From Octopus sinensis (taxonomy: Eukaryota): DNA of 64,000 nucleotides. Position numbers and translations under genes: made by a program. Every line of letters begins with the position of its first letter. The first letter of the stretch is position 1. This document shows positions 3,968-57,742 of this stretch, piece after piece. Location: contig NC_043002.1 of NCBI RefSeq assembly GCF_006345805.1, positions 112,716,001-112,780,000 of the forward strand, written 5' to 3'. The notes beneath the pieces were generated by a model, which ran no database searches, had not been told where the DNA came from, and saw only the letters and a program-made list of their open reading frames with translations.

Positions 3968-4008
3968 CTTTCTGCTGACAGAAGAGCGTAGGCTCGAAAC
4001 GTCGAAGA
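3968..4008 (+). ncRNA. Variant or decayed minimal hammerhead ribozyme motif
   Basis: CTGACAGAA, GAGC-gtag-GCTC stem II, GAAACGTC (palindromic stem III, GUC site); core has extra nucleotides. Confidence 0.45.
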
Positions 4009-4476
4009 CTTCTTCCATTGTTCTCTCACCTGTTTCTGACTTTTTGTTTTTTTTATTCTTTTATTCTGGAGCACCGCCTTTAGTCTAACAGGACTTATTC
4101 GTTGAACCGCTATGTTACGGGGACGTAAACACACCAACATCGGCTATCAAGCGATGGTGAGAGGACAAACAGTCACACACAATGTATGAAATGCGGCTGA
4201 AATATCAAATTCACCGAACAATCGTCATAGTCAAACCATGTACAACTCAGAAATTAAAGCTATCAAATATACCAGCCAATATTTTGAATGTGTGATTCAA
4301 ATCCTGCCGTGGTCGACTTTGCCTGTCATCCTTTCGGGATCGATAAGATAAGTACCAGTTGAGTACTGAGATCCATGTAATCGACTTACCTCTTCTCCTG
4401 AAATTGCTGGCCTAGTACCAAAATTTGAAATCGATATTTTGAATGCGAGAGGGGGAATTTTTTTTTTCTTACTCAG

Positions 4477-4554
4477 GAAAAATTCACATCTCAAACATCA
4501 GTGTGCTGGGACATTAGAAACATAAGCAGTCGAACAAATCAACTGAAATTCAGG
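4477..4554 (+). CDS. Candidate internal exon (EKFTSQTSVCWDIRNISSRTNQLKFR), gene unidentified
   Basis: Polypyrimidine tract + CAG acceptor, AGG|GTAAGA donor, 78 nt, only one open frame, phase 0-0. Confidence 0.35.
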
Positions 4555-4900
4555 GTAAGACGGTGAGATTTGATATTAAATAATTATTTCCAAAATTCTA
4601 GTTCAATAAAAAGAAGTGTTATATTCCTTTAAGGTGTCTCCCTTTAAAAGAATAATGTCCTCCTAACAGCTGATCAATGTTTAACGTTAATTATCGAATT
4701 CGATTTGAAGCAATCCTACATATTTTATGTGGAATATACACGACAGCCAAAGAAATGGTTATGTCTTGACGCAATCTTAGATTTTCAAATTGTTTCCATC
4801 TGATCACCTGAAATAATCTAGAAACTACGAGTACATTAACTAAGCAGACTTGAAAACATGTATTGTGTTATCTAACTTCATTCGTTTCAAAATTATATAT

Positions 4901-5299
4901 AGGAGTGGCTGTGTGGTAAGTAGCTTGCTAACCAACCACATGGTTCCGGGTTCAGTCCCACTGCGTGGCATCTTGGGCAAGTGTCTTCTGCTATAGCCCC
5001 GGGCCGACCAATGCCTTGTGAGTGGATTTGGTAGACGGAAACTGAAAGAAGCCTGTCGTATATATGTATATATATATAAGTGTGTGTGTATATGTTTGTG
5101 TGTCTGTGTTTGTCCCCCTAGCATTGCTTGACAACCGATGCTGGTGTGTTTATGTCCCCGTCACTTAGCGGTTCGGCAAAAGATACCTATAGAATAAGTA
5201 CTGGGCTTACAAAGAATAAGTCCCGGTGTGGCGTTGCTCGACTAAAGGCGGTGCTCCAGCATGGCTGCAGTCAAATGACTGAAACAAGTAAAAGAGTAA
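4901..5299 (+). mobile_element. OK-like SINE
   Basis: Full family consensus from AGGAGTGGCTGTGTGG to the AAAAGAGT tail. Confidence 0.9.
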
Positions 5300-5347
5300 C
5301 AGAATATTCGTTTTTTCTCCTCTCTCCATCTATTTTCTTTCCTCTTT

Positions 5348-5389
5348 GTTTTCTGCTGACAGAAGAGCGTAGGCTTGAAACGTCGAAGA
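5348..5389 (+). ncRNA. Duplicate of the variant hammerhead motif at 3968
   Basis: CTGACAGAAGAGCGTAGGCTTGAAACGTC. Confidence 0.4.
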
Positions 5390-5914
5390 CTTCTTCCATT
5401 GTTCTCTCGCCTGTTTCTGTCTTTATGGCTTTTTTTATTCTTTTATTCTGGAGCACCGCCTTTAGTCTAACAGGACTTATTCGTTGAACCGCTATGTTAC
5501 GGGGACGTAAACACACCAACATCGGCTATCAAGCGATGGTGAGAGGACAAATACAGTCACACACACACACACACATATATATATATATGCATATATATAT
5601 ATAATATATATATATATATATATATATATATATAATATATATACGATGGCTTCTTTCAGTTTCCATTAGCTATAGTAGAAGACACTTGCGCAAGGACTGA
5701 ACCCGTTTCATGGTGGCTGGGAAGCAAGCTTCTTACCAAACAGCCACACAAATACACACACATACACACACCACACACACACCACACAATATATAATTAT
5801 ATATATATATATATATACCGGAGTAAACACATAAATGTGAAACAAGGTGAAAAAAGAGTACTCAAATACCAGTGGTAGAGTAATATGCTTTATTTTAGCA
5901 GCAGAAAATTCAAC

Positions 5915-5961
5915 AAAATCTGTTACTCTGAGTTTCTCGTTGCCGTTCATCAGACAGTTTT
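5915..5961 (-). ncRNA. Minimal type I hammerhead ribozyme (left palindrome arm)
   Basis: Reverse complement of the 6001-6047 motif. Confidence 0.75.
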
Positions 5962-6000
5962 TTTGCTAGAATGGAACCGATATATCGGTTCCATTCTAGC

Positions 6001-54308: not shown

Positions 54309-54399
54309 GCTTAATGTAAACAACTTCTTTGGAAACCTGGCCTATGCAGAAGACAGCAATTCAATCTGTAGATGTTTACTTGAGGAAAATATTACTTGA
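54309..54399 (+). CDS. Candidate terminal exon (LNVNNFFGNLAYAEDSNSICRCLLEENIT*)
   Basis: Pyrimidine tract, CTAAT branch-like site, TTTCAG acceptor, 29 open codons. Confidence 0.25.
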
Positions 54400-55107
54400 A
54401 TTTGCTAACTTTCACTTTTGGTATTATCTGTCACCAAAACGAATGAAATATGTCTATTCAAGCAATATATAAAGCAAATATAGTGGAATTGCTGTAGCAA
54501 TAAATTTAGAAACCAAATGTAACTCATTACTAATGGGAAATATTGCATAGAAGAAAAATAGTTATTCCGTTTCTCTTCTCTTTTCTGCAGCCATTATTCA
54601 AATATTTTATAATGTTCACTTAAAGTCTCCGTTAGCAGACTTGTGTTTGGATACCGGTTTTCTAAACGAAAGATGGGTGGTTCGTATCCAGTCGTCATTC
54701 TTGACCGCGAAAAAAATTTATTTCTCAATGCACCGTTTCACCTAATTAATACGCAGAGACTATTATTGTTTAATTAATTAGTGCTTTGCTGTTTTGTACA
54801 ATAATTTTGTCATCCAATAGCAAATATATCAGGAAATTTAGGACCTTCCATTATCAAAAAATAATCGAGGCACGGCTGAGAAGTATAAAAAGGGAATGAT
54901 TCCCCGTGATATCCAAATGCGCATAAACAAAGATAAGCAATGTCGAGTGTATTGCACTGATATCCTCAGTGCTGATATCCTCAGTGCTGATATCCTCAGT
55001 GCTGTAGTCTGCCAAAGAGACAATAATAAAGAGAAAATAACAATATGCGGAATAATTATATAAATATTTTAAACTCTCAAAAAAAAAAAACAAATATATG
55101 GAAATAT

Positions 55108-55470
55108 ATGGTTCCGGGTTCAGTCCTACTGCGTGGCATCTTGGGCAAGTGTCTTCTGCTATAGCTCCGGGCCGACCAATGCCTTGTGAGTGGATTTGGT
55201 AGACGGAAACTGAAAGAAGCCTGTCGTATATATGTATATATATATATGTGTGTGTTTGTGTGTCTGTGTTTGTTCCCCTAGCATTGCTTGACAACCGATG
55301 CTGGTGTGTTTACGTCCCCGTCACTTAGCGGTTCGGCAAAAAAGAGACCGATAGAATAAGTACTGGGCTTACAAAGAATAAGTCCCGGGGTCGAGTTGCT
55401 CGATTAAAGGCGGTGCTCCAGCATGGCCGCAGTCAAATGACTGAAACAAGTAAAAGAGAAAGAGAGAGAG
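55108..55470 (+). mobile_element. OK-like SINE, 5'-truncated
   Basis: Family consensus from ATGGTTCCGGGTTCAG. Confidence 0.88.
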
Positions 55471-56510
55471 AAATAGAAATATTGGAGATGTAGATACTAG
55501 AGCAGCCACTTAATTACAGAGCTATTGGGATTAGTGAGATCTGATACAAAGCAGTAAATCGGAGAGCTGCCGGGTAAGCCTTTCATGTATGAAATCAGAA
55601 GTCTTTGGAATAGCACATATTCTGTTAAAAAAAGTTGTTTTTTTTTTTAAAGGAAATTAAATTTATCTTCTATTTCTCTTCAGGCTTCTGTCTATTTCAG
55701 GAAATTTTTCTAAACACTGTTTTTGTGCAGCAGGGCAATAATAGCGTTTTCTAGTTTAAACACAAAACCAGACAGTAAACCGATTATAATGGTGAGTGTG
55801 AGTGTATATGCGCATGTCTAAATAATATACACACACACACACACACACACACACACACACACACACATTTATCTATGTTTCTATTTCTCTTTCTCCCTAC
55901 ACACACACATATATATGCGTCGAGAATTTCGTGCAAGTGCAACTTACGAAACTCTCGGCCAATGAGTGACATAAATTTTACAGTCGATTACATGTGTGTG
56001 TGCATATGTGCATACATATATATGCAACACACGCATGTATGTATGTATGTATGTATGTATGTATGTATGTATGTATGTATGTATGTATGTATGTATGTAT
56101 GCACGCATGCCGTCTTGCCTATGGTCCTCAACTAGTAACATACCGTCCTAAAATATGAGATGTCTTGGGTACTTAGGGATTTGGCAGAGCACATGTCTCT
56201 CCACATCTGAAGTGTTGATTTCTTCCAGAAATAGAGATAGATAGGCTGGTAGAAAGAAAATAAAAGAGATGTGAAAGAAACGAAGCTAATAGAAGAATGG
56301 TACCTTTATCAAACAACCCCGAAGAGATGAAGAGCAAAGATGACTCCGACAGCTGGAAGTGAACTCAGAGTACATACACAGTGACAGACGATTACCTCAA
56401 AACATTCTAGCCAACGAGCACAAATGCTTTCAAATGCCACCCTTATATTTGATAAAACACGTATATGTGTATATATATATATCTATATATATATTTTTTT
56501 TTTCTTTTTT

Positions 56511-56812
56511 TTTGACCGACCAGGCTATCAGATGTTGCTATACATCGCTGGTCACAATGCGCTTCGCATTGTTTTTTTAGCCTTCAAATGGCGCCACCCC
56601 GCTGGCTAAGCGAGCAGGCCAACAGAAGAAAGAGTGAGAGAAAGTTGTGGCGAAAGAGTACAGCAGGGATCGCCACCACCCTCTGCCGGAGCCTCGTGGA
56701 GCTTTAGGTGTTTTCGCTCAATAAACACTCACAACGCCCGGTCTGGGAATCGAAACCGCGATCCTACGACCACGAGTCCGCTGCCCTAACCACTGGGCCA
56801 TTGCGCCTCCAC
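56511..56812 (-). mobile_element. OR2-like SINE
   Basis: OR head plus the same tail as 6998-7285 (TGTGACCAGCGATGT...CTGGTCGGTCA). Confidence 0.88.
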
Positions 56813-57219
56813 ATATATATATATATATATATATATATATATATATATCTATATATATATATATATATATATATATATATATAATATATATATATATATA
56901 TATATATATATATATATATATTATATATATACATATATATATATACATATATATATATATATACATATATATATATATACATATATATATATATATATAT
57001 ATATATATATATATATATACATATATATATATATTATATAATTAGGGCTTAGTAAAATAAATTACTTTGCCACATACTGAACTTAGTAGAAATAGCAGCC
57101 AGAAAAATTTTCTTAGCATTTCTACTACTTAAGAAAATTTCTCTCAGATAATGTTTACTCTAGACAGCTCACGAAGGTTTGGGGGTAAATACAGAAAAAT
57201 ATCACAAGTACATAGATCG

Positions 57220-57282
57220 TTTGAGTACGTCAACGTTTCAAGATTAGCCAAATAAAATCAGCATTTCTTTCGTCAGCTCAAA
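57220..57282 (-). ncRNA. Type I hammerhead ribozyme (left arm)
   Basis: Reverse complement of 57680-57742. Confidence 0.82.
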
Positions 57283-57679
57283 ATTTCTTAATTTGGATTT
57301 GGAAACACTAAAAAGAAGGAACTTTACCTATCAGCGAACTACTCGCTTCAGATGAACCACTCCAACTAACAGTGTCAACAAATTCAAAATGCGCAGGCGT
57401 AAAATTCTGCACTCCCCATTCCACCCACGTAAATTAATTAATTTTACCCTCAATTGTTGATATTATAATTAATTTCTCTCGGTCATACTGCCTCGGTTCT
57501 CGCGGTTAAAATATAATGTTTGCTAGATAGACCACGTGGGTGGAATGGGGAGTGCAGAATTTTACGCCTGCGCATTTTGAATTTGTTGACACTGTTAGTT
57601 GGAGTGGTTCATCTGAAGCGAGTAGTTCGCTGATAGGTAAAGTTCCTTCTTTTAGTGTTTCCAAATCCAAATTAAGAAT

Positions 57680-57742
57680 TTTGAGCTGACGAAAGAAATG
57701 CTGATTTTATTTGGCTAATCTTGAAACGTTGACGTACTCAAA
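57680..57742 (+). ncRNA. Type I hammerhead ribozyme (right arm)
   Basis: Stem I TTTGAG/CTCAAA, CTGACGA (57686-57692), stem II AAGA...TCTT, GAAA (57723-57726), stem III ACG-ttga-CGT, GUA site (57734-57736). Confidence 0.85.

Follow-up and report, generated by a model that had tools for sequence, protein, structure and literature searches.

The hammerhead motifs scattered over the 64,000-nt stretch of Octopus sinensis DNA analysed here (the window) are confirmed as real and mark insertions of the Penelope-like element (PLE) type in TA repeats, where fragments of coding PLEs are mixed with non-coding retrozymes that are likely moved by such elements. A descriptor search of the window found six complete type I hammerheads in four islands, each flanked by (TA)n. 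Every motif has CUGAnGA, helix II, GAAA, a palindromic or near-palindromic helix III, GUH and a helix I of 4-6 bp. All six strong cores that an earlier sequence-only reading had placed at 5915/6001, 13868, 16930 and 57220/57680 are thus present, and its remark that the strongest elements sit between (TA)n borders is true of all four islands. The same reading took them for type I hammerheads of the PLE and retrozyme kind, which is supported.

Such motifs could in principle be chance matches within AT-rich repetitive DNA. The descriptor was widened after the sequences had been inspected, i.e. a longer helix II and one mismatch at the helix II base were allowed, and the narrower first descriptor finds the two D cores only and misses A, B and C (shuffle mean 0.01). 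Moreover, there is no hammerhead model among the 150 Rfam matches listed of 427, which are mostly miRNA models on microsatellites. Nevertheless, the six observed motifs are well above the frequency in dinucleotide-shuffled sequence: the mean is 0.02 for global and 0.01 for 500-bp block shuffles, and none of the 100 shuffles of either kind reached six. An independent sample of 600 kb (contigs C1-C9 only) contains 7 canonical hammerheads versus 0.125 expected, and there is conservation and covariation across the family copies. We give chance next to no probability.

Four of the seven sampled hammerheads lie within 300 nt of (TA)6, versus 22% of random positions (small n). Evenly spaced samples, when extrapolated, point to some 30,000 intact-looking hammerheads in the whole genome; the window is thus nothing special, and the O. 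sinensis genome appears to be very rich in hammerheads. In other words, the idea of one special dispersed system in the window does not hold, since similar motifs of many families also turn up in these samples. Additional core types in this genome are U6 and G3-C8. An A3-U8 core is unproven, because its count in the 600-kb sample (one match) stays within chance and there is only one further locus, downstream of a coding PLE.

Family A and the damaged motifs

The family A insertion (5819..6076) has (TA)n on both sides and consists of two inverted parts. The + strand part (about 5983-6076) and an inverted copy on the - strand with a 64-nt tail (about 5982-5819) are joined at a short natural palindrome. 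The + strand hammerhead (6005..6042, core 6009, predicted cleavage after 6038) has a 4-bp helix I, an A-A mismatch at the helix II base and a near-palindromic helix III, and that of the inverted copy lies at 5920..5957 on the - strand (core 5953, predicted cleavage after 5924). Family A comes from an autonomous Hydra-like PLE: it is the 3' end of that element, truncated at its 5' side in the + part and joined to an inverted copy. The A hammerhead is found downstream in sense at 19 of the 20 best-matching coding loci, nine of which have a second one upstream as a direct repeat. Longer A copies have in common a fixed 1.3-kb 3' region that adjoins a 638-aa RT-endonuclease frame, and coding copies of 700+ aa with 95-98% identity have A downstream. 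Both core halves are kept in 21 of 34 distinct A copies. That the 258-bp A hairpin spreads as a unit of its own was considered but not retained as the principal reading, since longer copies have their fold-back at other points and run into a coding PLE. The recurring centre of the A hairpins is the natural palindrome, which the query used favoured finding.

The A parent has one ORF with RT and C-terminal endonuclease, DKT instead of DKG, no CCHH, and flanking CxxC and CxH, as judged by eye from the translation of one locus (L230). At 17 of 20 A coding loci the longest frame contains DKT. The outer Cys spacing of the CxCX5C linker is right in 16 of 20 frames; the middle Cys is found in only 2 of these 16 and is replaced by F or Y in most copies. 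A Pfam search of the Hydra-like proteins gave no match. Since a coding parent with the same sequence exists, A is not a non-autonomous element. The sequence-only reading had proposed several non-autonomous families; this stands for B, C and D and fails for A, as well as for E, a relative of another coding element's 3' end.

Six more sites had been described as decayed or variant, and comparison with genomic relatives indicates that all of them are real. Two damaged family E hammerheads lie on the + strand (3960..4020 and 5340..5400), the second being a local duplicate of the first with 85% identity. The family core is CUGUnGA, and the copies at 3968 and 5348 have extra bases inside it. Of 20 loci of a young coding PLE, 17 have an E-type ribozyme downstream, and E is likely the truncated 3' end of a coding PLE. 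The family F copy (site 25598) is a minimal hammerhead in an inverted-repeat insertion (25546..25767, - strand, core 25638), and its helix III palindrome has one substitution, GAAACGTT to GAAACATT. The decayed family G hammerhead (50170..50310, - strand, site about 50260) has a deletion in helix III; among its relatives, C3-G8 as well as U3-A8 cores occur, and helix III has a palindrome of 8 nt. No PLE frame was found at 25 F loci or at 20 G loci. The family H 3' fragment (38744..38838, + strand) lies between (TA)n runs and keeps the hammerhead 3' half only, the copy (site 38770) being truncated in loop II. One assignment needs mending: in the decayed family I hammerhead (32140..32240, - strand) the 3' half seen at 32159 is genuine, whereas the CTGAAGA taken for the 5' core matches an intact relative's helix II loop, the real 5' core having been lost.

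The ORF-less families B, C and D

The units of families B, C and D are 466-594 nt long, and no PLE frame was found in them. The B unit (594-nt monomer) at 13579..14035 on the - strand is 5'-truncated with its distal 3' end in (TA)n, and its hammerhead (13868..13950, - strand, core 13944, predicted cleavage after 13874) has a helix II region of 52 nt. The C unit (circular unit of about 466 nt) at 16775..17146 on the + strand begins just past the tail junction and extends as far as the proximal 3' end; its hammerhead (16930..17024, + strand, core 16936, predicted cleavage after 17018) has a helix II region of 60 nt and a perfect 10-nt palindrome as helix III. Family D is present as an inverted 5'-truncated copy on the - strand (57033..57430, core 57276, predicted cleavage after 57226), which ends at the proximal 3' end, and as a full monomer of 562-564 nt on the + strand (57432..58021, core 57686, predicted cleavage after 57736), which reaches the distal 3' end. 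The units agree with the retrozyme definition used here, i.e. they are short, contain a type I hammerhead and no ORF, and have a GC content under 45-50%; the D unit has 562 nt, 34% GC and a longest ATG frame of 42 aa.

Candidate loci genome-wide number 2234 for B, 2186 for C and 2534 for D, and the searches scored the best 40 candidates of thousands. Both core halves occur in 22 of 32 distinct B copies, 28 of 36 C copies and 12 of 15 D copies. Family D is young, its copies being 98% identical. B and D are 73% identical across about 190 nt on the 3' side, and a 17-mer common to both has 13,756 genomic occurrences; judged from sequence likeness, they are one superfamily.

The earlier claim that the fold is conserved and not the sequence is borne out by these families. 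In B/D subfamilies, which were chosen without a pairing requirement, the helix I sequences differ and still pair: at least 5 bp are formed in 8 of 11 cognate pairings versus 30% of non-cognate ones, and two of the three misses look mis-parsed. The covariation across genomic copies that this claim calls for is found as well. In 33 B-related copies 94% of the cells pair and four pairs are changed on both sides, including a helix I change from U-A to C-G in 12 rows, where this covariation represents few events inherited by subfamilies. The circular D monomer fold has z = -3.5 versus 30 shuffles, and in MFE folds of single copies the hammerhead fold is taken by some, not all.

The insertions of B, C and D comprise arrays of units placed head-to-tail as well as pairs of truncated copies in inverted orientation, and their 3' end lies at one of two alternative places. 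Direct repeats have periods of 543-594 nt without TA in between: D forms a trimer with a period of 562 (locus L018) as well as dimers, and a relative forms a 543-nt tetramer. The tandem evidence is weaker for B and C, because B has partial tandems only and C has a tail-to-head junction and one TA-separated dimer. The 3' ends adjoining (TA)n are proximal or distal in 18 and 12 cases in D, 6 and 11 in B, and 2 and 11 in C, and the 5' side of the unit continues straight into its own 3' tail. The tails are about 87-95 nt long versus about 43-64 nt in the sampled coding families, and are also longer than the published PLE tails of 30-40 bp. Families A-D have 5'-truncated, tandem and inverted copies, a one-ended tail and a (TA)n microsatellite target; this matches the published PLE traits (PMC8557442), i.e. 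tandems, an inverted truncated copy, a tail on one side and a preference for (TA)n.

The D arms of one insertion differ by 0-0.76% (13 pairs) versus a between-locus mean of 1.46% (582 pairs), as if the arms of single insertions were copied from one template. In C the within-locus values are mixed, and two of five inverted pairs, with 4.6% and 7.5%, come close to the between-locus mean of 4.85% or exceed it. That ORF-less retrozymes have the full PLE insertion signature, together with D arms from one template, gives structural support for mobilisation by PLEs and for arrays forming at insertion, not only by later crossover.

Probable mobilisation of the ORF-less units by PLEs

We consider it quite probable that family A, and likely also E, was left by coding PLEs as their truncated 3' end, and that B, C and D are ORF-less units likely copied in trans by a PLE RT/endonuclease into (TA)n. 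Tandem copies would give read-through transcripts, and cutting at GUH by two hammerheads paired via the palindromic helix III would release unit-length RNA, which may circularise. The PLE endonuclease would nick a TA tract and the RT would copy the RNA starting from a conserved 3' element. Passing one unit at times, the RT would generate tandems; often aborting or folding back, it would leave 5'-truncated and inverted copies that have a tail on just one side.

If B, C and D were instead pseudo-LTR (pLTR) fragments of autonomous PLEs, their short tandems would be partial pLTR repeats. Longer flanks showed family A to be exactly such a fragment, and with the best 40 of thousands scored, rare full-length parents could be missed. 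On the other hand, complete ORF-less units stand head-to-tail three and four times, the 5' side of the unit joins its own 3' tail directly, and no PLE frame lies upstream at any of 30 loci that were picked by motif in genome order, which makes pLTR fragments improbable. It counts against copying in trans that no helper of B, C and D was recognised among six sampled coding families and the 30 motif-picked loci: a PLE frame contiguous upstream in sense was found at none of 120 B/C/D loci, and the 3' end of B, C and D is common to none of the six families. The long tails of B, C and D and the mixed values of the C pairs count against it as well.

A different possibility is that PLEs mobilise the units while the hammerheads are catalytically irrelevant now, being structural or protein-binding signals or hitch-hikers; there would be no unit-length or circular RNA, and tandems would result from template jumping of the RT or from unequal crossing-over. 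Weak or absent in vitro cleavage has been published for PLE and retrozyme hammerheads, i.e. poor cleavage by PLE minimal hammerheads (PMC4209133) and none in 8 of 9 Xenopus retrozyme dimers (bioRxiv 10.64898/2026.07.22.740005), and Naiad PLEs spread without hammerheads (PMC8557442). A natural A6C change at core position 6 lowers activity (PMC3088659), and one coding family that is very successful in this genome carries U there in 17 of 20 loci. A search for expression gave no run recorded as RNA, and the four runs compared with a D trimer consist of contigs that are only presumed to be RNA. Nevertheless, diverged subfamilies and dozens of families retain the core, the pairing of helix I and the palindrome in helix III, compensatory C3-G8/U3-A8 swaps are seen, and coral and mussel retrozymes cleave and circularise (PMC7229834). 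We regard catalytic irrelevance as somewhat unlikely.

Within the preferred reading of copying in trans, we tentatively suggest, with more doubt than confidence, that B and D may be a large (order 10,000 copies), old and still-spreading long-helix retrozyme superfamily without its own coding parent, whose conserved 3' element of about 170 nt would recruit an unrelated PLE, with integration from circular RNA. If true, this would be the first retrozyme for which both the cis-element and the PLE insertion signature are defined, and it would offer a compact substrate on which target-primed reverse transcription by PLEs could be reconstituted and the role of the hammerhead tested.

Relation to known systems

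PLE hammerheads, TA targeting and animal retrozymes have already been published (PMC4209133, PMC8557442, PMC7229834). The kind of system is known and its class is unchanged by our findings, but these families appear to be undescribed: no description was found in the papers searched, and Repbase or Dfam may already list them. The role of PLE hammerheads and the machinery that moves animal retrozymes are open in print (PMC8557442, PMC7229834, bioRxiv 10.64898/2026.07.22.740005), and the young D family and active coding families in one genome make the helper question testable.

Animal non-LTR retrozymes (Cervera & de la Pena 2020, PMC7229834; Li, Clavereau & Pollet 2026, bioRxiv 10.64898/2026.07.22.740005) are, like B, C and D, ORF-less and low in GC with one type I hammerhead per unit, and form monomers, dimers and multimers; a self-paired circular fold is predicted for D here. 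Both co-occur with PLEs, the mobiliser proposed in the two papers. The B, C and D units (466-594 nt) exceed the about 170-400 nt of invertebrate retrozymes and are inside the 51-972 nt of the preprint. Unlike reported retrozymes, ours have helix II insertions of 25-60 nt. Their insertions also differ in lying at TA targets, in including truncated copies in inverted orientation and in having a tail on one side, whereas the word 'inverted' is absent from the main text of PMC7229834. The preprint proposes a sequence relation between retrozymes and pLTRs; for B, C and D none was found in the six coding families, an incomplete sample. Non-autonomous Chlamys PLEs such as MRC1 (PMC8557442) are similar to B, C and D as PLE passengers with pLTRs and head-to-tail insertions. 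However, they generally resemble their autonomous family at the 3' end, a match not found for B, C and D among the six sampled coding families, and most Chlamys are without hammerheads.

The Hydra-clade PLEs (Craig et al. 2021, PMC8557442) share with the A parent a C-terminal endonuclease without CCHH, DKT, CxxC and CxH, and the (TA)n target; the 3' UTR of the A parent is long in comparison, about 1.1 kb. The A hammerhead is nearly identical to that of Hydra-2_aMil in helices I and III and has the same layout (File S2, PMC8557442). It is unlike that of Hydra-1_oBim, so A is another family. The minimal hammerheads of PLE pseudo-LTRs (Cervera & de la Pena 2014, PMC4209133) come, as here, in many sequence families per genome, with an extra nucleotide after A9, palindromic positions 15.2-16.2 and a U3-A8 variant, and they too occur as dual motifs, one on each strand at a distance of 100-700 bp. 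The U6 and G3-C8 cores go beyond the variants in that work, and our estimate of tens of thousands of hammerheads is much higher than the 2,000-9,000 reported for Schistosoma, coelacanth and Xenopus (PMC4209133), which were counted with a different descriptor.

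Hammerhead motifs in the window and in the genome

The hammerhead motifs are real. Six complete type I hammerheads were found in the window with a descriptor in which a C-G pair closes helix III and helix I has at least 4 bp, broadened after the sequences had been inspected (the initial version matched only the two D cores). They belong to the repeat families A (cores at 6009, plus strand, and 5953, minus strand), B (13944, minus), C (16936, plus) and D (57686, plus, and 57276, minus). Dinucleotide-shuffled versions of the window contained on average 0.02 (global) or 0.01 (block) hammerheads, and six were reached in 0 of 100 shuffles of either kind. 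All six strong cores of the sequence-only reading are present. The six cores it regarded as decayed are damaged members of five more families, E to I, except that at 32159 the 5' core it chose is not the homologous one.

The window holds many microsatellites and pieces of transposons. SINE-like repeats, presumably octopus SINEs and so pointing to an octopus as the probable host, are abundant throughout, LINE and Tc1-mariner fragments also occur, and tandem repeats are found at 36745-37026 (103 nt, 2.7 copies) and 53534-53890 (71 nt, 5 copies, 98% matches).

The genome-wide density was estimated on an independent sample of 60 evenly spaced 10-kb stretches from contigs C1-C9 (599,900 bases). Here too the motifs were commoner than in shuffled sequence, with 7 canonical cores against 0.125 expected from 8 shuffled sets; 8 further motifs had U3-A8, C4, U6 or G3-C8 cores, and a single A3-U8 match was within chance. 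Extrapolating 7 motifs per 0.6 Mb to the 2.72-Gb genome gives about 32,000 hammerheads (Poisson range about 13,000-65,000). The stricter descriptor of this sample has 3 matches in the window, so the window is somewhat richer than average in motifs that are spread over the whole genome.

The earlier suggestion that the fold is kept while the stems differ was borne out. An alignment of 33 hammerheads related to B has 94.1% of its cells paired, as opposed to 18-46% in slid controls, and four pairs are changed on both sides (reached by 10 of 500 shuffles), these figures being inflated by the kinship of the sequences. Among B/D subfamilies, which were selected through the 3' motif irrespective of pairing, the sequence of helix I differs and the pairing is kept: at least 5 of 6 bp form in 8 of 11 representatives versus 30% of mismatched combinations. 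Taken over all loci there are dozens of other hammerhead families with unrelated stems and a palindromic helix III.

The core itself also varies. Both C3-G8 and U3-A8 cores are present in family G, a swap already published for PLEs (PMC4209133). U3-A8 or C4 cores occur in the 3' hammerheads of coding families that we call Neptune-like from their CxxxxCxxC linker (L151-L157, L300-L314, L265-L276), many copies of which have frames of 700-850 aa. A hammerhead-like motif with a swapped G3-C8 core and a 7-bp helix I was seen at three independent loci (L087, L342, L357); among the papers listed by a literature search none was seen to describe a natural G3-C8 core, although one mentions the term. A possible A3-U8 core with a 6-bp helix I lies at a single locus, 3' of a PLE fragment (L231, minus strand).

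Family A, and probably E, as ends of coding elements

The family A island (5819-6076) is a hairpin whose hammerheads point outward, with one arm extended by 64 nt; in its relatives the fold-back point varies, often falling at the same short palindrome. Many of 17 stretches around other A copies have a common fixed 1.3-kb region, upstream of which are frames of 170-638 aa. The 638-aa frame has RT motifs and DKT, lacks CCHH, and carries CxxC and CxH close to its end, traits given for the Hydra clade in PMC8557442. Among its 20 best genomic matches the A hammerhead lies downstream in sense in 19, and also upstream as a direct repeat in 9. Helices I and III are the same as in Hydra-2_aMil, whereas Hydra-1_oBim differs, and (TA)n is the insertion site of nearly all Hydra families listed in the supplement of that paper. 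Family A is the end of a coding PLE. We call this parent only Hydra-like because just 2 of 16 frames have the middle cysteine of the linker and the label comes from motifs rather than a tree.

Family E has a very young coding PLE (L405-L424; 18,033 candidates, 94-100% amino acid identity) with the E-type ribozyme downstream in 17 of 20 loci; the minimal hammerhead 3' of the ORF has U at core position 6 in 17 of the 20. The two window copies of E are a damaged local duplicate. The proposal of several non-autonomous families is supported for the ORF-less units B, C and D, but not for A and probably not for E.

Other parts of the window resemble such ends. The stretch 15640-15760 looks by eye like the 3' tail downstream of the E ribozyme, the ribozyme being absent. 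Two more (TA)n-bounded islands (15804-16028 and 14140-14460), one with a 46-nt inverted repeat, have relatives elsewhere, contain no complete hammerhead and are probably truncated PLE-type ends.

Structure and possible mobility of the ORF-less units

Families B (13579-14035, minus), C (16775-17146, plus) and D (57033-58021, an inverted copy plus a full monomer) have more than 2,000 candidate loci each, of which the best 40 were scored and 30 fetched per family. The D monomer of 562-564 nt occurs as a trimer (L018) and as dimers, often with an inverted truncated copy; the B unit is 594 nt, the C unit about 466 nt, and in both the 3' tail continues directly into the 5' side of the family's own unit. 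Each family has two 3' ends adjoining (TA)n (counts 18 and 12 for D, 6 and 11 for B, 2 and 11 for C). A long AT-rich stretch with an excess of C over G (17160-17980) immediately follows the family C copy.

D copies in the same insertion diverge by 0-0.76% (5 direct and 8 inverted pairs), those at different loci by 1.46% (582 pairs after removal of 6 duplicate loci). This makes a single template for the arms and arrays probable; the two B pairs fit, and the C pairs give a mixed picture.

At the 3' side B and D share 73% identity, and a short 3' motif is common to C and B/D. A 17-mer from it was counted 13,756 times, its reversed control not once. The first 30 matches include 24 that can be aligned to B or D (69-97% identity), among them diverged subfamilies and a 543-nt tetramer; none of the 30 is preceded by a PLE frame in sense. 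A minority of these loci (L393, L395, L396 and L400-L402 among L375-L404) lie in other repeats, one a 107-nt tandem, so the motif also occurs outside B/D. No helper for B, C or D was found among six sampled coding families.

Motif anatomy, family structure, insertion pattern and the association of A and E with coding PLEs are direct observations, and published work suggests how such units could move. By analogy with PMC4209133, cleavage may depend on dimers formed through the helix III palindrome; unit-length and circular RNA could arise as in the coral and mussel retrozymes of PMC7229834, and a circular D monomer is predicted to self-pair strongly (z = -3.5). Insertion would be driven by a PLE. 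A transcript that reads through an inverted island would reach the antisense arm ahead of the ribozyme, so inverted copies are likely silent and tandem copies the likely sources.

Comparison with known systems

PLE insertions described in PMC8557442 combine partial tandems with a 5'-truncated copy in inverse orientation and carry a tail of 30-40 bp at one end. B, C and D share the tandems, the inverted truncated copy and the one-sided tail, but their 3' ends lie about 87-95 nt apart. PLE hammerheads were reported in 2014 (PMC4209133), animal non-LTR retrozymes, one mollusc included, in 2020 (PMC7229834), and Hydra PLEs that target TA, one family of them from an octopus, in 2021 (PMC8557442); retrozymes were proposed to be non-autonomous PLE derivatives in 2026 (bioRxiv 10.64898/2026.07.22.740005). 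We found no published description of the present families, repeat databases and the supplements of the 2026 preprint being outside the search. The kind of system is already covered by these publications and the novelty is at the family level: longer units, an extended helix II, a shared 3' element, high density, some core variants, and ORF-less units that clearly bear the PLE insertion signature.
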